From the NCBI GenBank assembly GCA_964641415.1, contig CAZXMW010000001.1, positions 227,816 to 291,815 on the forward strand: a stretch of 64,000 nucleotides of DNA, read 5' to 3'. Made by a program: the position numbers and the translations under genes. A model generated the notes under the pieces. The model had not been told where the DNA came from. It worked only from the letters and a program-made list of their open reading frames with translations, and did no database searches. Of this stretch, positions 8,627 to 61,598 are shown piece by piece. This stretch comes from an uncultured Thermoanaerobaculia bacterium. Lineage in GTDB: Bacteria > Acidobacteriota > Thermoanaerobaculia > Thermoanaerobaculales > Sulfomarinibacteraceae. Every line of letters starts with the position of its first letter. Within the stretch, counting starts at the first letter, position 1.

Positions 8627-9741
<1,115 letters not shown>

Positions 9742-9745
<4 letters not shown>

Positions 9746-40652: not shown

Positions 40653-40970
40653 TCAAGAGTTTGTATCTTCGGACTCCAGAGCCTCGAGACGGGCTGTGAT
40701 GCGGTGCCGTTCGTCGTCGAGTTCGGTGGCCCGCTGCTCGAGCCACCGGCGCTCCGAGCCGACGTCGAAGCCGGATTCATCGGTCAACCACCCGGGTTGT
40801 CCGGTGGCCCAGAAACGATGACGCCAGCCGTTCCCGCCGCGACCGAAGCCGATCCCCGGTTGGCGGTATCCTCTGCCGCCACCCGACCACCCCGCTCTGC
40901 GGCACGGTCCGCATCCCCATCCGGTCATGGATCCCATTCCCATCGGTCCGGTTCCGTCTCCGCCTGGCAT
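40653..40970 (-). CDS. DUF5320 family protein
   Basis: N-terminus MPGGDGTGPMGMGSMTGWGCGPC and a C-terminal coiled-coil-like LEQRATELDDERHRITARLEALE. The start is 1 nt after the upstream stop. Confidence 0.75.
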   Translation of the reverse strand: MPGGDGTGPMGMGSMTGWGCGPCRRAGWSGGGRGYRQPGIGFGRGGNGWRHRFWATGQPGWLTDESGFDVGSERRWLEQRATELDDERHRITARLEALESEDTNS

Positions 40971-40971
40971 G

Positions 40972-41316: not shown

Positions 41317-41351
41317 GTCGATTCCCTCCCTGGACGCGCAAACGCCCGGTG

Positions 41352-41762
41352 TCAGCGTTGATGATGTCCGCAACCGCCGCTGTCTCCGGCATCTTTGGAG
41401 TGGTGGTCGCAGTCGTGGAAACCGTGGTCGTGGCACAGCTCGCCGCTGGTGGTGAGGGTGCCGTCGAGGTAGCACCGCACCAGCGTCTCCGGGTCGTCGC
41501 CGACGGCGCCGGTGACCACGTCGATGCCGTACGCCGTGAGCATCTGTGCCGCTCGGGGGCCCATGCCGCCGGCGAGTACCGCCTCGACGCCCTGTTGGCG
41601 AAGCCACGCCGGGAAGATCCCCCGACCGTGCTCGGGCGGTGGCGTGAGCCGGGGCCCGGCGACGTCCTTGAGCTCGAAATCCACGGTGTACATGGCAAAG
41701 GTGTCCGCCCCGCCGAAGTGAGGGCTGAACTTACCGTCTCGTATCGGGACTGCGATGATCAT
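41352..41762 (-). CDS. NifX/NifB-C-terminal-like (COG1433) protein, copy 2, with Cys/His-rich C-terminal tail
   Basis: MIIAVPIRDGKFSPHFGGADTFAMY...GVEAVLAGGMGPRAAQML..YGIDVV. Tail CHDHGFHDCDHHSKDAGDSGGCGHHQR. The start shares its A with the DUF134 stop (TGATG). Confidence 0.75.
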   Translation of the reverse strand: MIIAVPIRDGKFSPHFGGADTFAMYTVDFELKDVAGPRLTPPPEHGRGIFPAWLRQQGVEAVLAGGMGPRAAQMLTAYGIDVVTGAVGDDPETLVRCYLDGTLTTSGELCHDHGFHDCDHHSKDAGDSGGCGHHQR

Positions 41763-42148
41763 CAGTTTCCTTTCCTTTGTCCCCGGTGTCGGCATCGACA
41801 TCTCCGGCCGCGGCGACCGTCGCCGTCGTGAACCGGGCAGGGCAGCGGACGCTGCTCGCCTGGCACGACCGGTCCGTCGCCGATCACGAGGAGCCGTTCT
41901 TCGATCAATGATCGGGCGACGATCGATCGCGCCCGGGCCAGAATTCGAGAAAAAGTCGGACGTGAGACGCCCATGCGCTCGGCGGCTGCCTCCTGGTAGA
42001 GCCCCTCGAGATCAGCCAACCGAAGCGCCTCGAGCTCGTCCACCCTGAGGGTCTCGACCTCGAGCTCCATCGATGGCCGTCCGACGGGCTTGAAGCCTCG
42101 TCCTGGGCCGACGCAGCCGACTCGTCTGAGCTTTTCCGGTCGTCCCAC
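41762..42148 (-). CDS. DUF134 (UPF0251) predicted HTH DNA-binding protein
   Basis: GGAGG-cgct-GTG start at 42148 gives (M)GRPEKLRRVGCVGPGRGFKP..., matching the canonical MPRPRKCRRV...FKP N-terminus. The helix-turn-helix region is VDELEALRLADLEGLYQEAAAERMGVSRPTFSRIL. Confidence 0.75.
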   Translation of the reverse strand: MGRPEKLRRVGCVGPGRGFKPVGRPSMELEVETLRVDELEALRLADLEGLYQEAAAERMGVSRPTFSRILARARSIVARSLIEERLLVIGDGPVVPGEQRPLPCPVHDGDGRRGRRCRCRHRGQRKGN

Positions 42149-42164
42149 AGCGCCTCCGATTACG

Positions 42165-42193
42165 AACATATGCTCAAAATCGACACGTGTCAA
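42165..42193 (-). promoter_or_regulatory. Near-consensus sigma70-type promoter (TTGACA-17-TATGTT) overlapped by the 10-bp palindrome GACACGTGTC
   Basis: The minus strand reads cccTTGACAcgtgtcgattttgagcaTATGTTcgtaatcGGAGGcgctGTG. The -35 is at 42193-42188, the -10 at 42170-42165, and the perfect palindrome at 42182-42191. Confidence 0.5.
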
Positions 42194-42351
42194 GGGTCGA
42201 GTCACGCGCGTCTCGGGCTGGAATGGGCGCGTTTCCGGCGGACGGGCCATTTCTGCAGTTGTGCGCTGTCTGAAACTCGGCTACACGTTGTCGCAACTGC
42301 GGAAGTGGCAGTCGCCGAGCCCAGGCGCGGTGGATCGGGGCGCGAGCCGGG

Positions 42352-44514
42352 CTACCGGGAGATCGTCACGATCCCGACGTACCCGTCCACGGTGAGCCGG
42401 TCGCCGTTGGCGATCTGGGCGGTGACGTCGGGCACGCCGGTGACGCAGGGCAGGCCGTACTCGCGGGCAATGATCGCCCCGTGGACGAGCATTCCGCCGC
42501 GCCGCTCGACAACCGCCGCGGCGAGCGGCACGACGAAGGTCATATTGGGGTCGATCGCGTCGCACACCAGCACTTCGCCGGCTTCGAGCTCGAACAGATC
42601 GTCGACGCTTTCGACCAGCCGCGCGCGTCCGGTGGCGACCCCCGGGCCGGCAGGCTGGCCGACCAGCTGGCGCGGTTGGGCGCGGACGCCGGGCTCGGTG
42701 ACCAGAGGCTGCGCCGCCGGCTGCGGTTCGACGATGAGATTGGGGTGGCGCAGGGCCAGAATCACGCGTTCGGAGTCGATGTTTGCCGTTTTGGGCTCTG
42801 CCGGAAGCTGAATCCGGTCCCGCCCTTCGTCGACGGCAGCGAGCACGAGCGCCTCGAGCCGGGCGAGGTGGAGGTTGTCGTCGTCTCGCAGCCGATAGCT
42901 GGCACGACCGACGTCGAGAATTTCGGCCGCCAGCTGCCTTCGTTCGGCGGCCACCGCTTCGAGGAATGACTCGGCCAGCCCCTCAGTGTCGACCACGCGC
43001 AGCGTCCTGGGTCGGGTGGGTGCGTCGGCTGCTGCGAGCAGCCATCGCACGAAACGGTCGCGATCGGCAAAGCAGGCCCGGTCGGCGAAGACCGCGGCGC
43101 CGTGCTCGGCGAGAAAACCCTCGAGAATCGCCTCGAACCCGGCATCGGAACCACCGCCCTCGGCGAGGCTCGAACGCAGGGTCGGGTCGTCGCGGAGCGT
43201 CGCGACGAGGTCGGCGAGCGCCCGGTTGCGGCGCACGCCGAGCATGGGTGTTCCGGTGAGCAGGTCCATGAACTCGTAGGGGTCGTCCGGACGCACGACT
43301 TCGTTGTAGAACTGCCCGAACAGCCGAATGCCGTGCGCCAGGGGAATGAAGTCGCGCCAGTAGGTCTCGACCCAGCGGTCGTGGGCGGCCTGACGACGCT
43401 CGATCTCGGCGGCGAGCGCCTCGTGATCGAGGCCCTCGAGGTCGACCCGGTCGAGCTCCTCGGCCTGGCGATCCATGGCCGGAAGCATCTCGGTCTCGAC
43501 GGTGGTTCGGAGCTTCCGCAGGCTGTCGAGGCTGCGGGTCAGGCTGAGGTACCACGCGCGCTGATCGCCCTCGGAGCCGGCGGCTGTGGTCACCGGCCGG
43601 GACTGGAGCACGACCAGACGGTCGCGGTCGAAGGTCCACTCGACGTCCTGAGGGGATTTGACCAGCTCGCCCGCCGCACGAATCGCGGACACGACCCGGC
43701 CGAGCGCCGCGTCGTCCAGCGGTGGTGTGTCAATCGGGACCGCCTCGACCCGCGAGCCTCCTTCGGACATCACCATCCGTTGGCGCTTCGACGGTGGGCG
43801 GTGGTCAGTCAGCCGACCGTTCGAACGGTCGATCTGCCAGACGTCGGGCTCGACGGCACCGTCGACCAGCCCCTGGTTGAGGCCGTGCACCGCCTCGACG
43901 ACCATGAGGTCACGATCGGTGGGGTGGATGCCGAACCCGACGCCCGAGACGCGGCCGTTGATCAGGGGCTGGATGACCACCGCCATGGCGCTGCGCTCGG
44001 GGTCGATGCCGAGCTCGCGACGGTAGAGCAGCGCCCGATCGGTCCACAACGACGCCCAAACCGAGCGGACGGCTCCCACCACCTCTGCCGGACCGCGAAC
44101 ACCCACCGTCGAATCGTGCAGACCGGCGAAGGAAGCGCCCTCGGCGTCCTCGCCCGGCGCCGACGACCGGACCGCCAACACGGCGCTGCCGAAAAGCCCG
44201 CCGACCCGATCCTCGATTTCGGACGCCACCGACTCCGGCACCGGGGCGCGCAGGAAACGGTTGCGGATCCTGAGCGCCGTGTCCCAGATCTCCTCCCAGC
44301 GCATGTCGTCGAAGCTCTTGCGCCCGAGCTCCTGAAGGATCACCGGCCGCAGCGCGGCCGCATCGACGAAAACCTGGTAGGCAGCGGTGGTCAGGCACAG
44401 GGTCGCCGGGACCTCGAAGCCGCCGCGGGCGAGCACGGCGAGGGCCGCCGCCTTGCCGCCGACAACGGCAGGATCGGTGGCCTCGGGGGCGTCGAGACCG
44501 ACGACGAATCCCAT
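42352..44514 (-). CDS. PEP-utilising phosphotransferase with PpsA-type ATP-grasp N-domain and C-terminal swivel His domain (rifampicin-phosphotransferase-like architecture)
   Basis: VGGKAAALAVL, VRSSAPGEDAEGASFAGLHDS, DVEWTF...LVVLQSRPVT (PPDK_N). C-terminus GVATGRARLV...LVCDAIDPNMTFVVPLAAAVVERRGGMLVHGAIIAREYGLPCV. No PEP/pyruvate TIM-barrel domain. Confidence 0.8.
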   Translation of the reverse strand: MGFVVGLDAPEATDPAVVGGKAAALAVLARGGFEVPATLCLTTAAYQVFVDAAALRPVILQELGRKSFDDMRWEEIWDTALRIRNRFLRAPVPESVASEIEDRVGGLFGSAVLAVRSSAPGEDAEGASFAGLHDSTVGVRGPAEVVGAVRSVWASLWTDRALLYRRELGIDPERSAMAVVIQPLINGRVSGVGFGIHPTDRDLMVVEAVHGLNQGLVDGAVEPDVWQIDRSNGRLTDHRPPSKRQRMVMSEGGSRVEAVPIDTPPLDDAALGRVVSAIRAAGELVKSPQDVEWTFDRDRLVVLQSRPVTTAAGSEGDQRAWYLSLTRSLDSLRKLRTTVETEMLPAMDRQAEELDRVDLEGLDHEALAAEIERRQAAHDRWVETYWRDFIPLAHGIRLFGQFYNEVVRPDDPYEFMDLLTGTPMLGVRRNRALADLVATLRDDPTLRSSLAEGGGSDAGFEAILEGFLAEHGAAVFADRACFADRDRFVRWLLAAADAPTRPRTLRVVDTEGLAESFLEAVAAERRQLAAEILDVGRASYRLRDDDNLHLARLEALVLAAVDEGRDRIQLPAEPKTANIDSERVILALRHPNLIVEPQPAAQPLVTEPGVRAQPRQLVGQPAGPGVATGRARLVESVDDLFELEAGEVLVCDAIDPNMTFVVPLAAAVVERRGGMLVHGAIIAREYGLPCVTGVPDVTAQIANGDRLTVDGYVGIVTISR

Positions 44515-44963
44515 CAGTCGAAGTGGAGCTCGATGACGTGCTGGAAGCGGCTCACCACCATGTAGACCGACACCCGCAATCGGAGCAGCGCGGAGCTCGG
44601 CGACCGGACGAAGGTCTCCAGGTGGGGGTGCTTGGCGAGGAACAGGGTTTCGAAAGCCGAACGGTCGCCCGGGTCGATTTCCTCGACGACGCCGACCGCG
44701 GTTGCCGCCGACGCCTCGGTGAAGTCGGCAGGCCGGTTGGTTCGGTTGTCGACGAGCATCGAGGCGCGGGCGTCGCCGGCCAGGTTGTCGTGCTTGCGGG
44801 TCTGGCGACCGGTGACGAAAAGCAAAGATCGAAGGTCGTCGGTGGCGGCGAAGCCGACCAGGCTGGTGTAGGGCTCGCCGTCGTGGTGGGTGCCGAGGAC
44901 CGCCAATAACTGGCTCGACAGCAGCTCTCGCAGGATCTCGAGGTGGCTCGGGTCGTGATTCAT
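44514..44963 (-). CDS. Pyridoxamine 5'-phosphate oxidase family (FMN-binding split barrel) protein
   Basis: 149 aa. LLAVLGTHHDGEPYTSLVGFA...LLFVTGRQTRKHDNL pattern. The stop abuts or overlaps the downstream kinase start. Confidence 0.7.
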   Translation of the reverse strand: MNHDPSHLEILRELLSSQLLAVLGTHHDGEPYTSLVGFAATDDLRSLLFVTGRQTRKHDNLAGDARASMLVDNRTNRPADFTEASAATAVGVVEEIDPGDRSAFETLFLAKHPHLETFVRSPSSALLRLRVSVYMVVSRFQHVIELHFD

Positions 44964-45021
44964 CGGAGGGTCCCGCCTTTCACCGCGAAGTATACGGCTT
45001 CGCGAGCGGGGGGGGCGCCGG

Positions 45022-46035
45022 TCAGCGCCCGTCGCTCAGAGGGGCCGGGTGGATCGCCGCGCGGCCGAGTGCCATCATCGCCATGTGGGGCACCGTCAGC
45101 ACCGACAGACCGATGAAGACGATCGACGCGAGCACGGCGTCGAGCTGCACCCCGGCAATGAACACCGCGGCTCCGGCGGCGACAGCGGCAACCACCGTCA
45201 GGAGGGTCAGCGGCAGCGCCTCGCGAACGAAGCGTCGGATTCCGTCGCCGAGCCGCCCGGGCGCCAGGTCGCCTGCGAGCTCGAGGGCGTGGCGCATGGA
45301 GTGCCAGCCGCAGAAGTAGGTCAGAAAGGCGATCAGCGGCGGGGCGACCACATGGAGGGTAGCGATCGCGGCGAGCTCGGCCCCTGCAGCCAGGTGCCCG
45401 CTGGACGTCAGGCGAGCCAGACGAAGCGCGGCCACGGGGAGCACGACCGCCGCGGCGCAGCCCGCCAGAGCGCCGACGACGCCGTGGTCGAGGGTGATCC
45501 GCGCCGGCATCAGCCAGCTGAAGATGACCGTGACCTCGGCGGCGTGCAGCCAGGTCGGCAGCACGATGGGCAGCGCGCCGACCGCGAAGCGCTCGACGGT
45601 GTTCCAAAGCGGTGTCGACCGTTCGATCCACAGCGGATCGTCCCACCCGAAGTGAAGCGCCGACAGCGCGAGAAAGGTGACCAGCGCAATCACCGGAACG
45701 GCGATCCAGAGCGCTCCCATGAAGCCCGCCAGCGAAAGGTAGCCGACGACGAACGGGAGCCACCAGCGGCTGCCGAACACCGGCCGGAAGATCTGGCGCG
45801 CCACCAGATGATCGAGGGCGCCGTGAGGCAGGCCGACCACCGCGACCGCCGCGGCGAGCAGGGCGAGCTGAGCGAAGGAACCGGGCGAACCTGCAGTCAC
45901 CGCATATGCGATCACGGCAGCGGTGATGCCGAGCATCAGACTCCGGTGCTCGCTGAGGGGCGCGACCAGCGATTGCGCCCGGTGGGCGTCCAAACCAGGC
46001 TGCCGCCTCGGAAGGATGGCGAGAGTGGTCGTCAT
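45022..46035 (-). CDS. blh: Brp/Blh-family beta-carotene 15,15'-dioxygenase (retinal synthase)
   Basis: Polytopic protein with conserved His blocks GLPHGALDH, FCGWHSMRHALE and LTVPHMAMM. ATG 46035 lies 49 nt downstream of the rhodopsin stop. Confidence 0.8.
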   Translation of the reverse strand: MTTTLAILPRRQPGLDAHRAQSLVAPLSEHRSLMLGITAAVIAYAVTAGSPGSFAQLALLAAAVAVVGLPHGALDHLVARQIFRPVFGSRWWLPFVVGYLSLAGFMGALWIAVPVIALVTFLALSALHFGWDDPLWIERSTPLWNTVERFAVGALPIVLPTWLHAAEVTVIFSWLMPARITLDHGVVGALAGCAAAVVLPVAALRLARLTSSGHLAAGAELAAIATLHVVAPPLIAFLTYFCGWHSMRHALELAGDLAPGRLGDGIRRFVREALPLTLLTVVAAVAAGAAVFIAGVQLDAVLASIVFIGLSVLTVPHMAMMALGRAAIHPAPLSDGR

Positions 46036-46084
46036 CACAGAAGAAAACGACCCGGGCCGGCACGCGGCCGGCCCGGGACACACG

Positions 46085-46861
46085 TCACGCAGAGGCGCCG
46101 GCGGCGGACAGCGTGAAACCCTCGGCATCCGACTTGGCCCGAGCCAGGCGGTAGATGAAGATGCCGTACAGAGCCTTGGCGGTCAGGTCCGCAATGCTGT
46201 AGCCGACCTGGACGCCGACCTCGGCGGCGGCGCCGGAAAGGCCCAGCATGGGCAGGATGAAGGCGATGGGATAGACCCACCACGACACGACGATGAGATT
46301 TCGAGCGCCGGCGAGCCGTGACCGGATCTCGCCGTTCTCGTCGGCGACGGACCTGGTCAGCTGCCCGAACAGGACGCTCAGGATGTAGAGGAACGGAATC
46401 ATGGACAGCGCCCAGAAGACCCACCGCACCCCGTTCTGATCGGAGATCTCGCCCGGATAGCCGAGGGCGAGCATCGCGATGGCGGCGAAGCTGAGCTTGG
46501 TAATCAGGTTCGACGACTGAGCGCGGCTGAGACCGAGCACGGCGACCAGCTCGATGAGCAGCAGCGGCACGGTGATGAGCCAGTCGGCATAGCGGTAGGC
46601 CTCGTTGAAGGGGACGCCGGACGGGACGTAGTTGCCGCCCTGAAGGACGAAGGCGGCGGCCCAGCTTTCGAACATGCGGAAGTAATGGTAGCCGGCGATG
46701 AACACGACGACTCCGGAAATGATGAGCGCGGGCCGGTATTGCGGCGCGACCTGCGAGCGCGCGGCGAAGAAGAAGATGCCGGAGCCGAACATGGTCGCCA
46801 GCGTCAACGACAGCATGTTGTAGACCAGCTGGAACTGACCCGGGGTGAGTGTGAACTCCAT
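46085..46861 (-). CDS. Microbial rhodopsin, proteorhodopsin/xanthorhodopsin-like, DTE motif (outward H+ pump type)
   Basis: GGAGG RBS and ATG 46861, 258 aa. Helix B AGYHYFRMFESW. Helix C RYADWLITVPLLLIE (D, T, E at the BR 85/89/96 equivalents, Leu at the PR-105 position). Helix G YSIADLTAKALYG (Asp + Schiff-base Lys). Confidence 0.9.
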   Translation of the reverse strand: MEFTLTPGQFQLVYNMLSLTLATMFGSGIFFFAARSQVAPQYRPALIISGVVVFIAGYHYFRMFESWAAAFVLQGGNYVPSGVPFNEAYRYADWLITVPLLLIELVAVLGLSRAQSSNLITKLSFAAIAMLALGYPGEISDQNGVRWVFWALSMIPFLYILSVLFGQLTRSVADENGEIRSRLAGARNLIVVSWWVYPIAFILPMLGLSGAAAEVGVQVGYSIADLTAKALYGIFIYRLARAKSDAEGFTLSAAGASA

Positions 46862-47006
46862 CGTGAACCTCCAAGATTGATTTCGTTGTGTGAAAAGCAA
46901 TCTTATTTCGCAGAATTCCAGAAAAAATCGACGTGATCTTGACAAAATTGAGAATTTTATCTCAAGCTTTGAGCGGTTCATCTGCCTCAGGACCGTGCTC
47001 CTCTGG
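46862..47006 (-). promoter_or_regulatory. Conspicuously AT-rich rhodopsin leader with two inverted repeats
   Basis: TTGAGA-atttta-TCTCAA (46948-46965) and AAGATTG-18 nt-CAATCTT (46873-46904), the latter abutting the GGAGG RBS. I could not pin down a convincing -35/-10 pair. Confidence 0.35.
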
Positions 47007-47390
47007 TCACGGTCGGTGGTCGGCCGGGCCCCGTCGCAGGCGAATCGGACCCCGAGCCGAGGACGGATCGACCGCCCGGGAGCCCTGGACGATCTCGAGC
47101 CGGCCCGCCGCCGCGAGCCGCCGCGCCGCCCGGCGGGACGCCTCCATGAGCTCGCGCCACCGGTCCGGTGCGACCGCCCTCGCCGCCTCCGAGGGGCAGA
47201 TGGAGGCGCCGTCGGCCCGCGCCTCCAGAAGGTCGAGGATGGCGTCCTCGAGGCGTCGGTCGAGCGGCCTCAGCCGTCTGTTGCGGCAGACGCTCGAGCA
47301 GTAGCGCACCTCGTCCCAGCGGCGCCGCCATCGACGGCGCCACTCGAAGCGGCGACCGCAGGACGCGCAGATCTTCGACTCTCGGCTCAT
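47007..47390 (-). CDS. DUF2256 (Zn-ribbon) + DUF3253 fusion protein
   Basis: MSRESKICASCGRRFEWRRRWRRRWDEVRYCSSVCRNRR (DUF2256 pattern), then ...ICPSEAARAV...WRELM...RRAARRLAAAGRLEI. ATG 47390 forms an ATGA overlap with the photolyase-fusion stop. Confidence 0.7.
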   Translation of the reverse strand: MSRESKICASCGRRFEWRRRWRRRWDEVRYCSSVCRNRRLRPLDRRLEDAILDLLEARADGASICPSEAARAVAPDRWRELMEASRRAARRLAAAGRLEIVQGSRAVDPSSARGPIRLRRGPADHRP

Positions 47391-49822
47391 TCGGAACCGT
47401 CGAACAGCGATGGCTGCTCGGGGTCCGGGTGCAGCGAGAGCAGCCGCCCGGCCGCCGCGCAACCCGACAGGAAGGCGCCTTCGACCCTGGGCCCACCGCA
47501 CCAGTCGCCGCAGGCGGCGATCGCGAGATCCCGGTCGAACAGACACGGCTCCGGCAGGGGTTCGAAGGGCTGGGCGAAGCGCCAGCGATGGCCGAACAGG
47601 TCATCGGGCGGGGGCAGACGGCGGTTGACCGCGTCGTGGAAGGCGCCGACGAGCCGACCTGCGGCGAGCTCGCTGTCGAGCTCGAGGTGCTCCTCGGACC
47701 ACTCGGGCGAGGCGTGCAGGACCCAGGTCTCGCCGGTCGGACGACCGGGCTTGCTGCCGTTGCGGGCGACCCACCTCAGCGGAGAGTCGTGGACGAAGGC
47801 GCCGTCGAAGTTCAGCCCGAGCGGCTCCGCGAAGTGCACCATCGCCGCCCAGCAGGGCGCCATCTCGACGGCCTCCGCTCGCCCGCTGAACTCGGGCGCG
47901 AAACCGCCGAGCAGTGCGGCGGTCTGGGGCGCCGGGGCAGACACCACGATCGCGTCGAAACCACCGAGCTCGCCGTCCGTGGTGTGCAGGGACCAGCGGC
48001 TGCCGTCGCGATCGAGACCGGCCACGCGAATGCCGTAGGCGACATCGAGGTCCGTCGCCAGGTGCCGGCAGACGGCGTTCATGCCGGGAACACCGACGAA
48101 GCGCTCTGTCGTGTCGTCCTTGATCTCGATCGCCCCATGGTCGACCACCGCGATGGTGCCGGACCAGGGAGCGACGAGGCCGTCGTCGCGCCACGACCGG
48201 ACGAAGCGCCCGAAGCGCCGATCGCGCACCGTGAAGTACTGTGCTCCGTGGTCGAAGCGCAGCTCGCCGGCGCGCCGGGTCGACATTCGTCCGCCCGGCC
48301 CCCGGGACTTGTCGAAGACGCGGACCCGGTGGCCGTGATCGGCGAGGGATCGAGCGCACGCCAACCCCGACATGCCGGCCCCGATGATTGCGACCTCGAG
48401 CGGCCGCTCGGTGGCCGGTGGCGTCACCCGGGCGGCGTAGCGGTCGAGGTCGAGGCGGCGAGCGTGCGAGGCTGTGGAGCGCGAACGCACCCTGCCGAGG
48501 ACGGGTTGTTCCGGATCGAAGGGCCGGTCGAAGAGTCCGAGGCACCAGAGTAGGCCGCCGTAGGAATTGGGGTCGGATCCGTCGAGGGCGAAGCGGTGGT
48601 TGAGGTCGATCAGGGTGTCGAGGGCGTGGTGGGAATCGCGGGTCCAGCCGACGAGGGCTTTGCCCCAGGTCATCCGGACGTTGTTGTGAAGCTCGCCGTG
48701 GCGCACCAGCGAGGTCTGACAGAGATCCCACAGCCGGTCGCCGGTGCGGCCGCGGGACAGGGTCTCCCATGACCGGGGATCGCGCTCGTCGCCGGCGTGC
48801 CGCGTCAGGGTCTCCCGCGCCCAGACCGGCAGAACCTCGAGCGACTCGACGAGATCGTGACGATGAAAGCACAGGTTGTGCGCGAGCTCGCGCCAGACAA
48901 TGAGCTCGTCGAGGAACTTCTCGGCGCCCTTGCCGCCGACCTCGGCCGCCTCGCGGGCGATTCGCAGCGGAGACACGTGGCCGTGGTGGAGGTAGGCCGA
49001 CAGACGGCTGACGCCGTCGGCCGCCGCGTCGTTCCGCCGGGCGGCGTACGATCGAAGCCCGCGTTCGCGAAACGCCGACCAGCGGGCGTAGCCGGCGACG
49101 GATCCGCCCGGGGTGTGGGCGACCGGCCCGACGGTGTGGTCGACGGCGCAGCCCGCGACGAGATCGGAAATTGCTGTGTCCTCCAGGTCGGTGTCTTCGA
49201 ATCCGAGCGTCGAACGGTCAAAGGGCGGCGGCGAGCTCTCGACCGACGGCCACGGCGACCAGAGCCGACTGTCGAGCTCGTCGCGGATCGCCGACCGGAA
49301 CGCGAAGGCCCGGTCGTGGGGGCGCCCGACCAGCCGCATGGGGACGACGCACGCCGTGTCCAGCGCCCATACCGGGGTGGTGATCCGCTCGGCGACACCA
49401 GCGGTCCAACGGGAAAATGGCGGTGCCGGAAAGTCCTCGGTGACCACCAGCGCCGCGTCGGCGGCCAGCCCTGCCAGGGGCGTCGGTCGGCGGGGATCGG
49501 CGCCGAGTGAGAAGACGTGAACCAGACCCTGCTCGGCGAGCTCCGCGCGGACGTCGCGAGCGCCTTCGAGAATGAAGGTGTGGTGGCGGTCGTTATCGAA
49601 ACGGTGACCTCCGCCGAGCCCCTGGTAGACGATGAGAGGCAGCTCGAGCGTTGCGGCGGCGATGCGAGCGGCGTCGAGGGCGGGGTTCTCGTGACCGCGG
49701 ACCGCGTGGTGCATCCAGTAGAGCACGTGGCGCCCGGAGGTCGCGAACGACCGGTCGGCGACGATGCGCACCCGTTCTCGGACGGCCTCGGGGAGCCGGT
49801 CGAGAAGATTTTTCGGGGTCAT
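47387..49822 (-). CDS. Class II CPD photolyase fused to a renalase-like (COG3380-type) NAD/FAD-dependent oxidoreductase
   Basis: N-terminal part of about 470 aa: VLYWMHHAVRGHENPAL, LSAYLHHGHVSP, ELIVWRELAHN, LWDLCQTSLVRHGELHNNVRMTWGK, DGSDPNSYGGLLWCLG. C-terminal part of about 330 aa: VAIIGAGMSGLACARSL...FDKSRGPGGRMSTRR...ACGDWCGGPRVEGAFLSG. One uninterrupted frame. ATG 49822 forms an ATGA overlap with the nei stop. Confidence 0.8.
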   Translation of the reverse strand: MTPKNLLDRLPEAVRERVRIVADRSFATSGRHVLYWMHHAVRGHENPALDAARIAAATLELPLIVYQGLGGGHRFDNDRHHTFILEGARDVRAELAEQGLVHVFSLGADPRRPTPLAGLAADAALVVTEDFPAPPFSRWTAGVAERITTPVWALDTACVVPMRLVGRPHDRAFAFRSAIRDELDSRLWSPWPSVESSPPPFDRSTLGFEDTDLEDTAISDLVAGCAVDHTVGPVAHTPGGSVAGYARWSAFRERGLRSYAARRNDAAADGVSRLSAYLHHGHVSPLRIAREAAEVGGKGAEKFLDELIVWRELAHNLCFHRHDLVESLEVLPVWARETLTRHAGDERDPRSWETLSRGRTGDRLWDLCQTSLVRHGELHNNVRMTWGKALVGWTRDSHHALDTLIDLNHRFALDGSDPNSYGGLLWCLGLFDRPFDPEQPVLGRVRSRSTASHARRLDLDRYAARVTPPATERPLEVAIIGAGMSGLACARSLADHGHRVRVFDKSRGPGGRMSTRRAGELRFDHGAQYFTVRDRRFGRFVRSWRDDGLVAPWSGTIAVVDHGAIEIKDDTTERFVGVPGMNAVCRHLATDLDVAYGIRVAGLDRDGSRWSLHTTDGELGGFDAIVVSAPAPQTAALLGGFAPEFSGRAEAVEMAPCWAAMVHFAEPLGLNFDGAFVHDSPLRWVARNGSKPGRPTGETWVLHASPEWSEEHLELDSELAAGRLVGAFHDAVNRRLPPPDDLFGHRWRFAQPFEPLPEPCLFDRDLAIAACGDWCGGPRVEGAFLSGCAAAGRLLSLHPDPEQPSLFDGSE

Positions 49823-50652
49823 CTCGACCTCGCGGCGGGCTGGCAGGCGGGGCACCAGAAGCACTTCCGTCCGCCCACCGACGCCTGCTCGACCTCGACG
49901 CCGCAGACCCGGCACGGCTCTTTGTCCCGCCCGTAGACCCAGAACCTCGCCGCCGCTCGGGTCAGGCCGGTCTTCCTGAGCTCGGTGTAGCGGGTGTCGG
50001 GAACCGTGATCCCGCGGGTCCGGTAGGCGCGGCGGGTCAGGGCGAGCATCCGGTCGGCGAGCCGATCGCGCTCGGAAGCGCTGCAGTCGGCCGCCCGCCG
50101 GCGTGGGTGGAGCCCCGCCTCGAACAAGACGTCGGCGCGGAGGTAGTTGCCGAGCCCGGCGACGAAGCCCTGGTCGAGGAGGAGCGCTCCGAGCTGGCGT
50201 CCCCGAAAGCGCGACTCGTCGAGGCGCCCGGCGATCTCGTTCGCGGTCGGCGTTTCGGACAGCAGGTCGGGCCCGAGACGGCTCAAAAACCGGTGCTCGC
50301 GCTCGGCATCGCGGTCGAGGACCTCGATCTCGGAGGCCGAGTAGAGCAGCGCCTGCCGGCCGCCCGACCGGACCGCGAAGCGGAGCTGCCGACGGGTCTC
50401 GGGTCGCCGCCCGTTGGCCATGACGTACCAGCGGCCGTAGAGCTGGTTGTGCGAGTACACGGTCAGACCGCCGTCGAAGCGGGTCAACATGGCCTTGCCT
50501 CGGGTGGTCACCTCGCGAATCACCCGCCCGGTGAGCTCGTCCTCGTACGGCTTGAGACGCTCGAAGGCGAAAAAGACCTCGTCGGCCACCTGGCCCTCGA
50601 TGGCGGCGGCGACGCGGTCGGCAGCGCGGCGGATTTCCGGACCTTCCGGCAT
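49819..50652 (-). CDS. nei: Endonuclease VIII (Fpg/Nei family DNA glycosylase)
   Basis: MPEGPEIRRAADRVAAAIEG..., YSHNQLYGRW, LLYSASEIEVL, LLLDQGFVAGLGNYLRADVLF and the C-terminal zinc finger CFWCPACQ. Co-linear with E. coli Nei as I recall it. Confidence 0.85.
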   Translation of the reverse strand: MPEGPEIRRAADRVAAAIEGQVADEVFFAFERLKPYEDELTGRVIREVTTRGKAMLTRFDGGLTVYSHNQLYGRWYVMANGRRPETRRQLRFAVRSGGRQALLYSASEIEVLDRDAEREHRFLSRLGPDLLSETPTANEIAGRLDESRFRGRQLGALLLDQGFVAGLGNYLRADVLFEAGLHPRRRAADCSASERDRLADRMLALTRRAYRTRGITVPDTRYTELRKTGLTRAAARFWVYGRDKEPCRVCGVEVEQASVGGRKCFWCPACQPAARSR

Positions 50653-50710
50653 GTCGATCTCCATGTCGAGAAATGGCGGCGCGTGGTTTCGTATTCCGCG
50701 GGCCGGCGCG

Positions 50711-54276: not shown

Positions 54277-55230
54277 ATGAGTATGACCACCGACGGCCTC
54301 GAACCGGGTCTCCAGGCCGATTGGACGAGCGGCGGTTTTCGGTTGCAGGAGCGCCACCAGGTGCTCCGTTCGGCGATCGAGCGGCGCCTCTCCGACCTCA
54401 TCCCTGACGAGAACGTCGACCCGCAGCCGCTCCATCAATCTATGCGCTACAGCCTGCTGTCCGGGGGCAAGCGCCTGCGGCCGCTGCTCACTCTTCAGGT
54501 GGCATCCGATCTCGGCGGCTCGGTCGATGACGCCCTCGATTCCGCCTGCGCCATCGAGATGATTCACGCGGCGTCCTTGATCCTCGACGATCTGCCCTGT
54601 ATGGACGATGCGTCGCTGCGGCGCGGTCGGCCGGCAAATCACCTCGTATTCGGCGAAGACACGGCGATTCTCGCTGCGACCGCACTGCTCAACCGGGCGT
54701 TCGGGGTCGTCGCCGAGTGCGAACGGCTGCCGGCCGAGGTCCGCATCGGGCTGACGCGCCTGCTGTCCGACGCGGTGGGCAGCGATGGCATCATCGCCGG
54801 CCAGCTCTCCGATCTCCGGTCCAAGCGTGGCAATCAGGACGACGCCGTCGGGCTTGCCCGGATGTACGTTCAGAAGACCGGGGCGCTCTTCGTGGCGGCG
54901 CTGGAGGCGGGGGCTCGGGTCGCCGGCGTGGACGAGATTGCTGTCGGCGCCGTCCGCGAGTACGGCACCAACCTCGGTCTCGCGTTCCAGCTGCTCGACG
55001 ATCTGCTCGACAGCCACTCAACCCCCGACGCATCGGGTAAGGACATCGGGCAGGACCGGGATGCCTCGTTGGCCAACCGACTCGGCGCCAGCGGAGCGAG
55101 GCGTGAGGTGTACCGGTACGTGGAGACTGCGGCGTCGGCGCTCGAGCCGCTCGGCAGCTCCGGCCGTCCGCTCGCCGAGCTCGCGCGCATTTACACGAAA
55201 ACCACCATGGAGCGTGTAGTCTTCTTCTGA
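54277..55230 (+). CDS. crtE: Polyprenyl (geranylgeranyl) diphosphate synthase
   Basis: First DDxxD motif LILDDLPCMDDASLRRGRP and second motif FQLLDDLLD. Context with the crtZ/B/I/Y genes. Confidence 0.8.
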   Translation: MSMTTDGLEPGLQADWTSGGFRLQERHQVLRSAIERRLSDLIPDENVDPQPLHQSMRYSLLSGGKRLRPLLTLQVASDLGGSVDDALDSACAIEMIHAASLILDDLPCMDDASLRRGRPANHLVFGEDTAILAATALLNRAFGVVAECERLPAEVRIGLTRLLSDAVGSDGIIAGQLSDLRSKRGNQDDAVGLARMYVQKTGALFVAALEAGARVAGVDEIAVGAVREYGTNLGLAFQLLDDLLDSHSTPDASGKDIGQDRDASLANRLGASGARREVYRYVETAASALEPLGSSGRPLAELARIYTKTTMERVVFF

Positions 55231-57451: not shown

Positions 57452-57482
57452 CCGTGATTGAGGGTTGCGACGGCAGGAAGGA

Positions 57483-57941
57483 ATGATGCTGATCTCCATA
57501 ACCCTCTTCGTCGGAACCGTCGTCGCCATGGAAGGCGTCGCCTACCTGATGCACAGATTTCTCATGCACGGGCCTCTGTGGTTTCTGCACGAGAGCCACC
57601 ACGTGCGCGACAAAGGCCGCTTCGAGCTCAACGACCTGTTCGGCGTCTTCTTCGCCATCCCGTCGATCATCCTGATCTGGTTCGGCACCCACGGCCAGCC
57701 GCATCTGCTGCCCGTCGGTCTCGGGATGACCGCGTACGGCGCCATCTACTTCGGCTTCCACGACGTCATCGTCCACCGCCGGATCCCGCACCGGTTGAAG
57801 TTCGGCAACGCCTATCTGCAGCGGATCGTCAAGGCCCACCGCATCCACCATGCCACGCGGTCCAAGGACGGCGCGGTGTCCTTCGGCTTCGTCTACGCGC
57901 CGCCGATCGACAAGCTCAAGGCGGCCGTCGGCAAGCGCTGA
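57483..57941 (+). CDS. crtZ: Beta-carotene 3-hydroxylase (fatty-acid hydroxylase superfamily)
   Basis: AGGAAGGA RBS. His boxes HRFLMH, HESHH, HDVIVHRR and HRIHHA, with SFGFVYAP near the end. Confidence 0.8.
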   Translation: MMLISITLFVGTVVAMEGVAYLMHRFLMHGPLWFLHESHHVRDKGRFELNDLFGVFFAIPSIILIWFGTHGQPHLLPVGLGMTAYGAIYFGFHDVIVHRRIPHRLKFGNAYLQRIVKAHRIHHATRSKDGAVSFGFVYAPPIDKLKAAVGKR

Positions 57942-57968: not shown

Positions 57969-58904
57969 TCACTGCCTCCTTCGCGTCCACAGTCGATTCC
58001 GCGGCTCGTCCTCCGGGCCTCGGCCCCAGCGCCGAGCGATCCACGACCTCGGCCCCGAACCGAGCACCAGGGCGAGCTTGCGCACCGCGCCGGTCGACGG
58101 GCGGCGGTCCCAGGCGCGTGCTCCGCGAGCGAGGATGAGCCGGCCGATGTCGCGGTAGACGGAATTGGCGGCGGCCACCGCCCAGGCCGAGCGCGGCGGC
58201 AATCGGGAGATTCCGAGCCATGCCGAAGCGTAGTAGCGGTCGGCCTCGGCCAGGACTCGGCGGACCACGTCGGCGAGCGCGGGCCGGCGCTTCACGTCTC
58301 GGATCTCGTCCGCCGGAACACCGGCCTCGTCGAGCCAGTCGCCGGGCAGGTAGATCCGGCCGACCTCGGCGTCGTCGATCACGTCTCGGCAGATGTTGGT
58401 CAACTGGAAGGCGAGCCCGAGGTCGGTGGCGCGATCCAGCGTCGGCTCGTCGCGCACCCCCATGAGGTAGGCCATCATGACGCCGACGACCCCGGCGACG
58501 TGGTAGCAGTAGTCCAGGGTGTCGTCGAGGCGCGAGTAGGTGCGGCCCTCGACGTCCATGACGAAGCCGTCGAGGTGCTCGAGGGGGTAGCGGTGGGGGA
58601 TCTCGGCGTCGACCACCACGCGCTGCAGCCCGGCGAAGATCGGGTCGTCGGTGGGCTCGCCGGCGAGGGCGCTCAGGGTCCTTTCGCGCAGCCGCTCGAC
58701 CCGCGTGCGCCCTTCGTCGGTGCTCAGAGCGGCGGCGCCGAAGCCGAGCTCCTGGTCGTCGGTTTCGTCATCGCAGTGGCGGCACCAGGCGTAGAGCATG
58801 TAGGCGCCGTCGCGGGTCTCCGGGTCGAACAGTCTCGCCGCCGCGGCGAAGCTCTTCGAGCCCTTCTCGATGACCTCCTGGCCGTGGTCGGCGAGGTGGC
58901 GCAC
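57969..58904 (-). CDS. crtB: Phytoene synthase
   Basis: GSKSFAAAARLF, YAWCRHCDDETD, YCYHVAGVVG, QLTNICRDVIDDAEVGRIYLP. Confidence 0.9.
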   Translation of the reverse strand: MRHLADHGQEVIEKGSKSFAAAARLFDPETRDGAYMLYAWCRHCDDETDDQELGFGAAALSTDEGRTRVERLRERTLSALAGEPTDDPIFAGLQRVVVDAEIPHRYPLEHLDGFVMDVEGRTYSRLDDTLDYCYHVAGVVGVMMAYLMGVRDEPTLDRATDLGLAFQLTNICRDVIDDAEVGRIYLPGDWLDEAGVPADEIRDVKRRPALADVVRRVLAEADRYYASAWLGISRLPPRSAWAVAAANSVYRDIGRLILARGARAWDRRPSTGAVRKLALVLGSGPRSWIARRWGRGPEDEPRNRLWTRRRQ

Positions 58905-58914: not shown

Positions 58915-60411
58915 TCAGGCTCCCGCTCCGAGCAGGTCGGGGATCATGAGCCCTGCGGTCGCCTTGGCCGAATTGACCACACCGGGCACCCCGGCGCCGG
59001 GGTGGGTGCCGGCGCCGGCGAAGTAGAGCCCGCCGATCTTCTTGTCGCGGTTGTGGACCCGGAACCACGCGCTCTGGGTCAGGATCGGCTCGAGAGAGAA
59101 CGCCGAGCCGTGCTGCGCGTTGAGCACGTCGGCGAAGTGGTCGGGATCGATGAAGCGGACGGTCTCGATGTCGGCCTGCAGATGCGGCAGGTAGCGCCGC
59201 TCGAGGTAGTCGAGGATCGTGTCCCGATAGCGGGGGCCGGCCTCGGACCAGTCGATGGGCGCATTGCCCAGGTGGGGCACCGGCGACAGCACGTAGAAGG
59301 CCTCGCAGCCTTCGGGCGCCACCGACGGGTCGGTCAGGGTCGGCGCGTGGAGATAGAGGGAGAAGTCGTCGGCAAGCGTGGTTCCGTTGAAAATGTCTTT
59401 GAGGTGGCTCTTGTAGCGCGGCCCGAACAGGATGTCGTGGTGGGCGATCTGGGTGTGGCGGTGCCTGACCCCGAAGTACACCACGAACAGCGACATCGAG
59501 AAGCGCTTTCGCTTGAGCCGTGCCGCCTCGCGCTGAGCGTCGGGGTTGTCGCTCAGCAGGGCTTCGTAGGTGTGGACGACGTCGGCGTTGGATGCCACCG
59601 CGTCGAATTCGCCGCTCCAGCCGTCGGCGCAGCTCACCCCGGTGACCCGGCCGTTGGAGGTGTGGATCCGCTCGACCGGTGAATCGAGCCGGATCTCGCC
59701 GCCGAGCTCGGTGAAGACCTCGACCAGCGCGCGGACCAGCGCACCGGTGCCGCCCCGGACGAAGAACACGCCCCAGTTGCGCTCGAGATAGTGGATCAGG
59801 GTGTAGATCGACGACGAGGTGAAGGGGTTGCCGCCGACCAACAGCGGGTGGAAGCTGAAGACCTCGCGCAGGTGGTCGTCCTTGATGAACTTGGAGATGA
59901 TCGAGTAGACGCTGCGGTAGCTCTGCAGCCGGATCAGCTGCGGCGACACCCGGATCATGCTCCAGAAGTCGAGGAACGGGGTCGCCGCGAGCTTGGTGTA
60001 GCCCTCGTGGAAGACGTCCTCGGCGTAGTCGAGAAAGCGCCGGTAGCCGTCGACGTCGCCCGGGCTCTTGTCGGCGATCTGCTTGGTGATCGCCTCCAAG
60101 TCGTTGGAGTAGTCGAAGGTGTAGCCGTCCTCCCAGTAGAGGCGGTAGAAGGGCATGACCGGGAGCAGGGTGATGTACGAGTCCATCGACCGTCCGGCGG
60201 CGGCGAAGACCTCCTCGATGCTCGGCGGCGCCGTGATGATGGTCGGGCCGCCGTCGAAGGAGTATCCGGAGTCCTCGTAGACGTAGGCGCGGCCGCCGGG
60301 CTTGTCCCGCTTCTCGATGACCGTCGTCTGGATCCCCGCGGCCTGAAGGCGGACCGCCAGGGTCAGCCCGCCGAAACCGCTGCCGATGACCGCTGCTGTG
60401 GATTGGCTCAC
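58915..60411 (-). CDS. crtI: Phytoene desaturase
   Basis: GTG 60411 forms a GTGA overlap with the crtY stop. AAVIGSGFGGLTLAVRLQAAG, EKRDKPGGRAYVY, and C-terminal GLYFAGAGTHPGAGVPGV. The track ORF (to 61896) runs on through crtY antisense frames. Confidence 0.9.
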   Translation of the reverse strand: MSQSTAAVIGSGFGGLTLAVRLQAAGIQTTVIEKRDKPGGRAYVYEDSGYSFDGGPTIITAPPSIEEVFAAAGRSMDSYITLLPVMPFYRLYWEDGYTFDYSNDLEAITKQIADKSPGDVDGYRRFLDYAEDVFHEGYTKLAATPFLDFWSMIRVSPQLIRLQSYRSVYSIISKFIKDDHLREVFSFHPLLVGGNPFTSSSIYTLIHYLERNWGVFFVRGGTGALVRALVEVFTELGGEIRLDSPVERIHTSNGRVTGVSCADGWSGEFDAVASNADVVHTYEALLSDNPDAQREAARLKRKRFSMSLFVVYFGVRHRHTQIAHHDILFGPRYKSHLKDIFNGTTLADDFSLYLHAPTLTDPSVAPEGCEAFYVLSPVPHLGNAPIDWSEAGPRYRDTILDYLERRYLPHLQADIETVRFIDPDHFADVLNAQHGSAFSLEPILTQSAWFRVHNRDKKIGGLYFAGAGTHPGAGVPGVVNSAKATAGLMIPDLLGAGA

Positions 60412-61598
60412 GTCGTTCCCCCGCTCGTGGTGGTGCTCGCTGTCGCCCCGGGGCGCCGCGGATCGCGAAGACACGCGATGGCCCGTCGGACCGGTACTGG
60501 TGGCCGGCCGGTCAACAGCCGAATCTTGTCGGTCGATTTCAGCCGACCGGCGTAAAAGCGCCGGATCAGCGGCGCCGGGAGGCCGTAGAAGCGTTCGAAG
60601 ATCCGGTACCGCAGGTGCGGCTCGGCGGCGCGGAACATCATCCGGTTGAGCAGCCGAAAGAAGCCGCCGCGCTCCCAGGCCTCGAGCGACCGCCGGCGCG
60701 TGAGCTCGTGCAGCTCGCGTCCGTCGAGCCCGCGGGCGGCCGCGATCTCGTCGGCCAGCGCGACGGCGTCGGGCAGCGAGTAGCCGGTGGTCGGGTGGAA
60801 GAATGCGCCCCGCATCCCGCTTCGGGCGACGTCGACGGGGCCGGTGGCCCAGAATGCGCGGATGTCGCCGCCGAGTGCGATCGGCAGCACGCCCGACTCG
60901 CGGTCGGTGATCGCCTCGATCTCCCATCCCTGACGCGCGGCGTAGGACCGGAGCTCGACGGCGATCCGATCCGGCTCGAGGACGGGGCCGTCGCTGTAAT
61001 ACGTGTCCTCGACGAGCAGCTCGCGCTCGCCGAGGGGCAGCGTGTAGACGAAACGGTAGCCGTCGGTCTGCTCGACGGTGGCGTCCATGAGGATCGGACC
61101 GTCGAGGCCGTGATCGCAGGCGAGCCGGACGAACAGCCCGACGAACTTCTGGAAGCCGACCTCGATGGCGTCGCCGCCAGGATCGCCGCGGCCGTCGACC
61201 ACCGCACGGGCGGTCAGCTCGGTGCCGTCGGCGAGCCGGGCCCGGTTCGGACTGAGCTCGACCACGTCGACGCCGAGCCGCACCCGGTCGCCGAGGGCGA
61301 CGCTCACGGCCTCGTGCAGCCGCTCGGAGGTGACCGTGCTGTAGCCGCCGTCCATGACCCGCCGGCGGCGCGGGAAACGCAGCTCGTGCCGGTTCCACGA
61401 GTGCGCCACCAGGGGCGCCATCCAGGCCCGCTGGTCGGCGGTCAGATCGGAGTCGTGGAACGACCAGGTGTGATCGGCGCCGAGCGAGTCCTGCCGCTCC
61501 AGGACGAGCAGCGGGAAGCCGGGCTCTTCGACGAGGATCCGGTGCGCGATGAGGCAGTTGGCGAGGCCGCCGCCGACCAAGACCAGGCCCGAAGTCAC
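60408..61598 (-). CDS. crtY: Lycopene beta-cyclase
   Basis: GLVLVGGGLANCLIA, HTWSFHDSDL, GFQKFVG, FFHPTTGYSLP. GTG 61598 forms a GTGA overlap with the upstream stop. Confidence 0.85.
   Translation of the reverse strand: MTSGLVLVGGGLANCLIAHRILVEEPGFPLLVLERQDSLGADHTWSFHDSDLTADQRAWMAPLVAHSWNRHELRFPRRRRVMDGGYSTVTSERLHEAVSVALGDRVRLGVDVVELSPNRARLADGTELTARAVVDGRGDPGGDAIEVGFQKFVGLFVRLACDHGLDGPILMDATVEQTDGYRFVYTLPLGERELLVEDTYYSDGPVLEPDRIAVELRSYAARQGWEIEAITDRESGVLPIALGGDIRAFWATGPVDVARSGMRGAFFHPTTGYSLPDAVALADEIAAARGLDGRELHELTRRRSLEAWERGGFFRLLNRMMFRAAEPHLRYRIFERFYGLPAPLIRRFYAGRLKSTDKIRLLTGRPPVPVRRAIACLRDPRRPGATASTTTSGGTT

Follow-up and report, generated by a model that had tools for sequence, protein, structure and literature searches.

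The locus described here raises a question about light harvesting: when an opsin gene of the xanthorhodopsin family sits in the same stretch of DNA as genes for carotenoid synthesis, a retinal synthase, and a carotenoid hydroxylase, does its product pump protons with retinal alone, or does it also use a carotenoid as an antenna? The stretch analysed, hereafter the window, is 64,000 nucleotides (nt) from an uncultured Thermoanaerobaculia bacterium of the phylum Acidobacteriota. The two genes at the centre of the question are an opsin gene and blh, which follows it on the same strand. Our answer is that the opsin is very probably a light-driven outward proton pump of the xanthorhodopsin (XR) family that works with retinal only, with the retinal supplied by the nearby carotenoid (crt) genes and Blh. 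This reading is built on gene models, motifs, alignments, and predicted structure, which we take up below before weighing the alternatives. The two genes are as follows:

46085..46861, minus strand: opsin gene, 258 amino acids, XR-family rhodopsin with an Asp-Thr-Glu (DTE) motif; open reading frame (ORF) and translation
45022..46035, minus strand: blh gene, 337 amino acids, Brp/Blh beta-carotene 15,15'-dioxygenase (predicted retinal synthase)

Gene models

The gene models of the opsin and blh, and the residue identities read from them, are firm. Translation of 46085..46861 on the minus strand gives a protein that runs from MEFTLTPGQ (MEFTLTPGQFQLVYNM) to LSAAGASA, and the blh ATG lies at 46035, 49 nt past the opsin stop codon. 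The original prediction had placed blh 49 nt downstream of a 258-residue opsin, and both the ORFs and an independent gene call agree with it—a Logan contig of identical sequence was called as 258 amino acids, a 49-nt gap, and 337 amino acids, the same models as ours. The GC content at third codon positions (GC3) of the two ORFs is 0.83-0.85, in keeping with the coding pattern of the window.

The blh frame differs from that of the opsin and, if extended to its earliest possible start codon, runs into the 3' end of the opsin gene. An internal Met of blh (that of MLGITAAV..., residue 34 of the 337-residue model, preceded by GGAG) was considered as the start; it was rejected because the upstream EHRSLMLG stretch is conserved in orthologues.

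Pump motifs of the opsin

Three segments of the opsin carry the residues of a proton pump: AGYHYFRMF holds H59; RYADWLITVPLLLIE holds R90, D93, T97, L101, and E104; and SIADLTAKALYG holds D225 and K229. The remaining residues that matter here are W150, M154, W194, and W195. Equivalences to known rhodopsins were taken from a MAFFT alignment with bacteriorhodopsin (BR), GPR, Gloeobacter rhodopsin (GR), Thermus thermophilic rhodopsin (TR), and psXR, together with HMMER pairwise alignments to five solved XR-family structures; the pairwise alignments to GR, psXR, and TR have no gaps through helices A-E. The alignment columns of the BR and GPR reference sequences show the expected defining residues; the XR-family references were taken from HMMER output. 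In the lines below, PR stands for proteorhodopsin.

H59: equivalent to PR H75 and GR H87, the helix-B His
R90: equivalent to BR R82
D93, T97, and E104: equivalent to BR positions 85, 89, and 96, the DTE motif
L101: equivalent to PR L105 and BR L93, the tuning position
W94, W194, and Y197: retinal pocket
D225 and K229: equivalent to BR D212 and K216, the counter-ion Asp and the Schiff-base Lys

The DTE motif, helix-B His, counter-ion Asp, and Schiff-base Lys had all been named in the original prediction, and all are present. Conservation was assessed over the 119 best full-length homologues of the opsin, across which H59, R90, D93, T97, E104, W194, D225, and K229 are invariant. The Leu that had been noted at the PR-105 position is likewise there, and is Leu in 118 of the homologues; being near-universal, it is the family default, and so carries little information beyond 'green-type'. 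The opsin also has the standard retinal-pocket residues (W94, M130, S153, W194, and Y197), while the positions of the BR release group, E194 and E204, are Leu and Gly, like those of the XR-family references. Outward H+ transport is what these motifs predict. By analogy with the XR-family pumps, the opsin would absorb in the green, at roughly 530-560 nm.

Family placement

The opsin is a member of the xanthorhodopsin family. As a type-1 rhodopsin it has the seven-transmembrane (7-TM) Bac_rhodopsin fold (Pfam PF01036, E = 5e-42) and a DxxxK motif made up of D225 and K229; no NCBIfam model matches it. Within the type-1 rhodopsins it is closer to XR, GR, TR, and Kin4B8 than to PR, BR, or the sodium- and chloride-pumping rhodopsins, and it combines DTE with the helix-B His. 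When compared with all PDB chains, its six best matches are psXR (262 bits), Gloeobacter rhodopsin (259), Thermus thermophilic rhodopsin (256), Salinibacter xanthorhodopsin (255), Kin4B8 (251), and Rhodoluna actinorhodopsin (210). The next matches are Cl- pumps at about 100 bits (at most 101), Na+ pumps at about 83, proteorhodopsins at about 76, and BR at about 62.

Predicted structure and phylogeny place it in the same family. An AlphaFold2 (AF2) model built on 36 homologues (mean pLDDT 89.4, pTM 0.83) has seven TM helices and the B-C beta-hairpin typical of the XR group. The best Foldseek match of this model is GR (6nwd), with TM-scores of 0.92/0.96 and a root-mean-square deviation of 1.2 Å; as 244 columns are aligned to a 246-residue target, the alignment is almost gap-free. 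The top 11 Foldseek matches are all XR-family chains. In a neighbour-joining (NJ) tree of 65 sequences (Kimura-corrected distances, 100 bootstraps), the opsin falls within the XR family with 96% bootstrap support against GPR, the latter being the outgroup to the XR clade. Inside the family it belongs to a clade (78%) made up mostly of Acidobacteriota metagenome-assembled genomes (MAGs) and marked by Trp, Met, and Trp at residues 150, 154, and 195 (W-M-W, discussed below); an inner clade with 97-99% support joins it to a Thermoanaerobaculia MAG and a Ca. Sulfomarinibacteraceae MAG.

The original prediction had spoken of a proteorhodopsin/xanthorhodopsin clade and suggested phylogenetic placement as a check. 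Bit scores, NJ tree, and fold retain the xanthorhodopsin half of that label and remove the other, with the opsin in the XR family and outside both GPR and the actinorhodopsins. A strict proteorhodopsin is ruled out by a score of about 76 bits to GPR chains versus 262 to psXR, and by the outgroup position of GPR. An actinorhodopsin is ruled out as well—nine actinobacterial sequences form a distant clade of their own, and the Rhodoluna protein RlActR reaches 210 bits at 43% identity. In public records, related MAG proteins are titled 'bacteriorhodopsin [Acidobacteriota bacterium]'.

A probably closed carotenoid pocket

The residue that bears most directly on an antenna is in helix E, where RWVFWALSMIPFLYIL holds W150. 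All five HMMER pairwise alignments set W150 against the same position, which is Gly156 in XR, Gly178 in GR, G153 in Kin4B8, and Trp138 in BR; in the MAFFT alignment W150, BR W138, and GR G178 share one column. The Trp that had been placed here by eye in the original prediction is thereby confirmed. The alignments to psXR, GR, and TR are gap-free from helix A up to W150. In the HMMER pairwise alignments, the window segment RWVFWALSMIPF has Gly opposite W150 in each of the following:

psXR: RIVWGAVSTVPF
GR: RIIWGTVSTIPF
TR: RTLWGALSSIPF
XR: RGLWGFLSTIPF
Kin4B8: RLMWGVLSTVPF

Two further residues belong to the same pocket. M154 occupies the XR T160/GR T182 position, which is part of the 'carotenoid locked motif' (PMC9151804). 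W195 adjoins the Trp equivalent to BR W182, one residue after it, and its position is Gly in all solved XR-family structures. The three codons are located at:

46412-46414, minus strand: residue 150
46400-46402, minus strand: residue 154
46277-46279, minus strand: residue 195

Across the homologues, these three positions (150/154/195) occur in a few combinations, counted as follows:

W-M-W: 39
G-T-G: 25
W-M-L: 19
W-M-S: 12
W-M-A: 11
F-C-M: 4

The split between the closed W-M-(W/L/S/A) form and the open G-T-G form is nearly strict. Because the three pocket positions co-vary, the 'closed pocket' is a multi-residue state that goes beyond a single substitution. By these alignments W150 is a clade-wide state, common to the clade dominated by Acidobacteriota MAGs (Thermoanaerobaculia, Ca. 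Sulfomarinibacteraceae). A fenestrated XR would have Gly at XR-156 and small or polar pocket neighbours; the opsin has Trp rather than Gly, with M154 and W195 beside it.

Published work gives this substitution a meaning. Environmental XRs and PRs differ at XR-156, where Trp or Phe precludes an antenna; Gly is found there in 55% of environmental XRs on average, and the Kin4B8 mutation G153F leads to loss of xanthophyll binding (Chazan et al., bioRxiv 10.1101/2022.08.24.505090). The psXR paper agrees on the variation at XR-156 (PMC12779958). In GR, the G178W mutation wholly blocks canthaxanthin binding and improves stability and pumping; Trp occurs at this position in 24% of 150 natural GR homologues, and Pyrocystis lunula rhodopsin, a natural Trp-type relative, pumps protons (Chuon et al., PMC9151804). 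The earlier claim of no XR-type antenna despite the presence of a crtZ gene finds support in the results for GR G178W and Kin4B8 G153F. The lack of a carotenoid antenna on the opsin is to be expected by analogy, and is sound but not new, because roughly a quarter to half of natural XRs are already known to have Trp or Phe at this position.

The opsin-blh pair and retinal supply

Every close relative examined keeps the opsin and blh side by side, 46-127 nt apart. The relatives referred to below, with the identity of their opsins to ours, are:

P0002: contig of the closest relative, compared through its gene table; 91% identical
L052: 86% identical
L001: Thermoanaerobaculia MAG; 84% identical
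L002 and L054: Ca. Sulfomarinibacteraceae; 81% identical
L056: 81% identical

In more distant acidobacterial loci the order is opsin-crtI-crtB-crtY-blh.

Blh is matched by the Pfam family BCD (E = 9e-47) and by NCBIfam TIGR03753 (Brp/Blh), the latter at 177.8 bits against a cut-off of 95.25. Five of its His residues (H71, H128, H245, H249, and H317) are 94-100% conserved in an alignment of 18 homologues from related loci. Their spacing is close to that of His-21/78/188/192/256 of marine Blh, a residue mapping made by spacing only; the marine residues have been discussed as iron ligands (bioRxiv 10.64898/2026.08.06.743266). Cleavage of beta-carotene to two molecules of retinal is accordingly the predicted activity.

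The crt genes lie 7-15 kb from opsin-blh:

54277..55230, plus strand: crtE-like short-chain polyprenyl diphosphate synthase, presumed geranylgeranyl diphosphate synthase; Pfam polyprenyl_synt 2e-48
57465..57941, plus strand: crtZ-like beta-carotene hydroxylase, 158 amino acids; Pfam FA_hydroxylase 44 bits against a cut-off of 31
57969..58904, minus strand: crtB, phytoene synthase; Pfam SQS_PSY 8e-67
58915..60420, minus strand: crtI, phytoene desaturase family; NCBIfam TIGR02734 668.6 bits against a cut-off of 238; Pfam Amino_oxidase 3e-43
60408..61598, minus strand: crtY, lycopene beta-cyclase; NCBIfam TIGR01789 (equivalog) 450 bits against a cut-off of 215; Pfam Lycopene_cycl 7e-91

Clear Pfam domains are present in all four of the crtE-like, crtB, crtI, and crtY products. 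The crtE-like protein reaches 224 bits against the NCBIfam model CrtE (cut-off 460) and 248 against FPPsyn (cut-off 275); by curated thresholds it is a 'polyprenyl synthase' only. It is 67-69% identical to the product of the gene beside the opsin in L002 and L054. For crtB, the best NCBIfam match is NF042419, at 382 bits against an equivalog cut-off of 480. A complete kit of crtE/B/I/Y with blh and crtZ had been proposed, and the genes are indeed there; the part that has to be softened is crtE, for which the assignment goes no further than the polyprenyl synthase level.

In the crtZ-like translation, the motifs HRFLMH, HESHH, HDVIVH, and HRIHH can be made out by eye, and its orthologue in L054 is 81% identical. 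We take this gene to be a putative crtZ on the strength of its size, its His-rich motifs, which are like those of CrtZ, and a likeness to the CrtZ of Pantoea. An ABC-2 transporter pair, an ATPase and a permease (55239-57451, plus strand), separates the crtE-like gene from crtZ; it is 68-75% identical to a pair in L054 (694-2858) and may serve to handle or export carotenoids. In L054, crtZ, the two ABC genes, and crtE stand immediately upstream of the opsin, an order which suggests that the opsin and the carotenoid genes probably formed one continuous block in the past.

Spacer hairpin and leader

Three elements around the two genes bear on their expression:

46041..46077, minus strand: terminator-like element in the 49-nt opsin-blh spacer; terminator scan
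46868..46872, minus strand: Shine-Dalgarno sequence GGAGG, 6 nt before the opsin ATG; read from the sequence
46873..46990, minus strand: AT-rich leader of about 120 nt, presumed opsin promoter region; from the sequence

The spacer element is a hairpin with an 11-bp all-G:C stem (CCCGGGCCGGC / GCCGGCCCGGG), a 5-nt loop, and the T-rich tail TCGTTTTCTT; its RNA fold has an energy of -31.1 kcal/mol (z = -2.8 versus shuffles). In four other lineages the core GGCCGGC...GCCGGCC comes directly behind the opsin stop codon, and in most cases a T-rich run succeeds it (spacers at L001 10778-10826, L002 10778-10842, L052 1165-1210, and L056 6778-6831). The hairpin is probably an intrinsic terminator or attenuator that sets the opsin:Blh ratio; with such an element in the spacer, the opsin and blh are probably not expressed at a simple 1:1.

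Upstream of the opsin, GGAG(G) is equally placed in orthologous loci, and the AT-richness of the leader stands out in a window whose GC content is 65-70%, close to 68%. The motif CTGGAATTC lies inside the leader at 46913-46921 (minus strand), about 50 nt before the opsin ATG, and may be a promoter or regulator site. Orthologous leaders have it in register too—as an exact copy in L001, and with mismatches in L052, L056, and L002/L054. The window contains a single exact copy; one-mismatch copies number 4 versus 8.6 expected, so there is no sign of a regulon in the window. A sigma-70 promoter scan of 44400-47600 returned no site. Scans of the whole 64 kb with Rfam, at the gathering threshold, and with ARAGORN returned no RNA family and no tRNA gene; hence no known riboswitch or RNA element accounts for the leader or the spacer.

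Proposed mechanism and alternatives

In the mechanism that we propose, all-trans retinal would be bound to K229 as a protonated Schiff base and would be isomerised by light. The counter-ion and proton acceptor would be D93, held and tuned by H59, together with D225 and R90. The Schiff-base proton would pass to D93, and E104, as the cytoplasmic donor, would reprotonate the Schiff base; the proton would then be released outside in the absence of a Glu194/Glu204 release dyad of the BR type, as in other XR-family pumps. The proton-motive force gained in this way would add to respiration. In antenna-bearing relatives, the carotenoid ring meets the beta-ionone ring of retinal via an opening in the face made by helices E and F. 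In the opsin, W150 of helix E would fill this opening, with the bulkier M154 and W195 in place of Thr and Gly, so that light would be harvested by retinal alone. For the chromophore, the crtE-like synthase, CrtB, CrtI, and CrtY would lead to beta-carotene, and Blh would cut its 15,15' bond to give retinal; CrtZ would divert some beta-carotene to zeaxanthin for non-antenna uses, for example photoprotection or membrane function. The spacer hairpin and its T-tract would end most transcripts, giving much opsin and little Blh from one promoter.

The presence of crtZ invites two other readings. One is that the pump does use a carotenoid antenna, for example CrtZ-derived zeaxanthin, bound either at the usual helix E/F face, W150 having moved out of the way, or elsewhere on the surface. 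The conservation of crtZ next to crtE in L054 fits this idea, as do the use of hydroxylated xanthophylls as antennas by Kin4B8, psXR, and some PRs, and the occurrence of a myxol-bound Cl- pump structure (9jow) among the fold matches. We nevertheless regard an antenna as very unlikely: W150 stands where all known antenna-binding XRs have Gly, G-to-W and G-to-F substitutions abolish binding experimentally, M154 and W195 replace Thr and Gly in a W-M-x versus G-T-G division that is nearly strict, and crtZ is common in bacteria that make zeaxanthin simply as a pigment. The other reading is that the native chromophore is 3-hydroxyretinal, made by Blh from CrtZ-derived zeaxanthin or beta-cryptoxanthin, since crtZ and blh coexist with the opsin. 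The standard retinal-pocket residues speak against it, and plain retinal is understood to be the chromophore in many rhodopsin-bearing bacteria that produce zeaxanthin. A 2026 preprint reports that Blh cleaves zeaxanthin to 3-hydroxy-retinal in E. coli at low efficiency, and that earlier in vitro work had seen no such cleavage (bioRxiv 10.64898/2026.08.06.743266). We hold this chromophore to be highly improbable.

The opsin might also act as a photosensor, pump inwards, or transport some other ion. Light-related neighbours (a photolyase-like/FAD-oxidase fusion and a DUF2256-DUF3253 protein) could be read in favour of a sensor or other function, and an NDQ rhodopsin on a related contig implies that the lineage has more than one rhodopsin function. 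Against this, the set of DTE, His, Arg, and Asp/Lys is invariant across the homologues, every solved relative with an identity of about 50% pumps H+ outwards, the NDQ (Na+) and NTQ (Cl-) pump motifs are absent from the opsin, and no Htr- or ASRT-like transducer gene was found near it; a function other than outward proton pumping is therefore most improbable. A broader reading at the level of the clade can be offered as a tentative and rather unlikely one: the ancestral XR carotenoid pocket would have been permanently filled by a co-evolved W150/M154/W195 triad acting as a carotenoid surrogate, which would stabilise the beta-ionone side and speed the pump as GR G178W does. The xanthophyll would then be put to other use, through ABC-2 export or outer-membrane insertion, or through Blh cleavage to 3-hydroxyretinal as an alternative chromophore.

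Several points weigh against the retinal-only proton pump and its supply pathway as we describe them. The ion specificity and direction of the opsin are predicted purely from motifs, and the closing of the pocket by the W150 side chain is argued from homology to BR W138 and from GR G178W. Deep NJ nodes within the XR family are weakly supported (9-49%). On the supply side, the crtE-like and crtB products score under NCBIfam equivalog cut-offs, and the crtZ-like product is without an NCBIfam match. As for expression, conservation of the stem sequence leaves the spacer hairpin with weak covariation, in 3 of 11 pairs, and the T-tract is imperfect in some lineages; the weak covariation is the reason why we call the hairpin 'terminator-like' only. 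The hairpin could instead be a stabilising 3' structure or an element of the repetitive extragenic palindromic (REP) kind.

Comparison with known systems

The closest solved relatives of the opsin are the XR-family pumps GR (6nwd), psXR (9wfa), XR (3ddl), TR (5azd), and Kin4B8 (7ytb/8i2z), which are 49-53% identical to it in Foldseek alignments. They share with it DTE, the helix-B His, and the Arg, Asp, and Lys of the active site, as well as the B-C beta-hairpin, the 7-TM fold (TM-scores 0.90-0.96), and an XR/TR-like C-terminal 'AKS..EGF' tail. The difference is in the pocket: these pumps have Gly at XR-156 (the fenestration), Thr or Ser at the M154 position, and Gly at the W195 position, and carotenoid binding has been shown for all of them but TR, whereas the opsin has W150. 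In having a bulky aromatic residue at the fenestration position, the opsin resembles GR G178W, Kin4B8 G153F, and Pyrocystis lunula rhodopsin; reports on such types describe no carotenoid binding, H+ pumping that is kept or improved, and higher stability (PMC9151804; bioRxiv 10.1101/2022.08.24.505090). Unlike GR G178W and Kin4B8 G153F, the Trp of the opsin is native and clade-wide, and comes with two further co-varying substitutions.

Actinorhodopsins (Rhodoluna lacicola RlActR, 9hfk) are also DTE pumps of the XR superclade with a helix-B His; they differ in their identity to the opsin (43-47%, 210 bits) and in their separate NJ clade, and all those sampled are G-T-G. The marine PR photosystem sets (PR, crtEIBY, and blh) resemble the window in having a DTE pump with Leu at PR-105 and a retinal pathway that ends in Blh; the opsin of the window is of the XR family, unlike the PR of those sets. 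In the literature searched, the only Acidobacteriota rhodopsins described are the PR-type rhodopsins of 'Acidiparvus', freshwater Holophagaceae that are reported to lack crtY, crtI, crtB, and crtE (PMC11561045). In contrast to 'Acidiparvus', the window has predicted genes for the whole retinal pathway, and it comes from the class Thermoanaerobaculia rather than from Holophagaceae.

The window adds a well-supported case of predicted rhodopsin phototrophy with a self-sufficient retinal pathway in Thermoanaerobaculia-like Acidobacteriota. Both Blh and CrtZ are understood to require O2; this requirement and the photolyase-like genes around the opsin suggest that the bacterium lives in sunlit, oxic water or mats, although its class takes its name from an anaerobic thermophile. 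The three-position co-variation marks natural 'closed-pocket' XRs, and is mildly useful for rhodopsin biophysics. Current understanding is unchanged, as non-fenestrated XRs, roughly a quarter to half of natural XRs, were known already; judged from its sequence, the opsin gene is that of an ordinary XR-family pump in a common natural, Trp-plugged variant.

Neighbouring genes

P0002 and the window have the same local order: ligase, Fpg, photolyase-like fusion, DUF2256/DUF3253, opsin, blh, PNPOx, and PPDK-like. Directly upstream of the opsin and in the same orientation are two genes (47007-49822, minus strand), one for an 811-residue fusion of a class-2 photolyase-like part with an FAD amine-oxidase/NAD_binding_8 part, and the other for the DUF2256-DUF3253 protein; the repetition of this order in P0002 suggests a light/UV-response neighbourhood. 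A second rhodopsin was looked for in the window and none was found. L054 has one at 9575-10375, with the motif RYLNWLIDVPMLLIQ (NDQ, Na+-pump type), about 4 kb downstream of its opsin-blh pair and beside a TrkH gene.

At 50520-51551 (minus strand) there is an ORF of the metallo-beta-lactamase (MBL) fold, whose N-terminal half weakly matches Lactamase_B. This ORF, possibly for a ligase-associated exonuclease, continues out of frame into the final ~99 amino acids of an ATP-dependent DNA ligase (DNA_ligase_A_C). P0002 is intact at this point, with genes of 340 and 530 amino acids, which indicates that about 1.8 kb has been deleted, or misassembled, in the window. At 38319-42250 (minus strand) lies an anaerobe-style cluster of Fe-S genes, which encode two MinD/ParA-type ATPases that carry 4Fe-4S ferredoxin inserts, two NifX/NifB-like proteins with a Nitro_FeMo-Co domain, a small Gly/Arg-rich protein, and a DUF134 regulator. 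Such a cluster fits oddly beside a retinal pathway that depends on O2.

Finally, a 145-residue hydrophobic protein with no Pfam match is encoded at 52555-52992 (minus strand). Its homologues, 51-52% identical, are encoded immediately after blh in L002 (11895-12281) and L054 (6672-7058), and the protein may be an unrecognised accessory of the opsin-blh pair.

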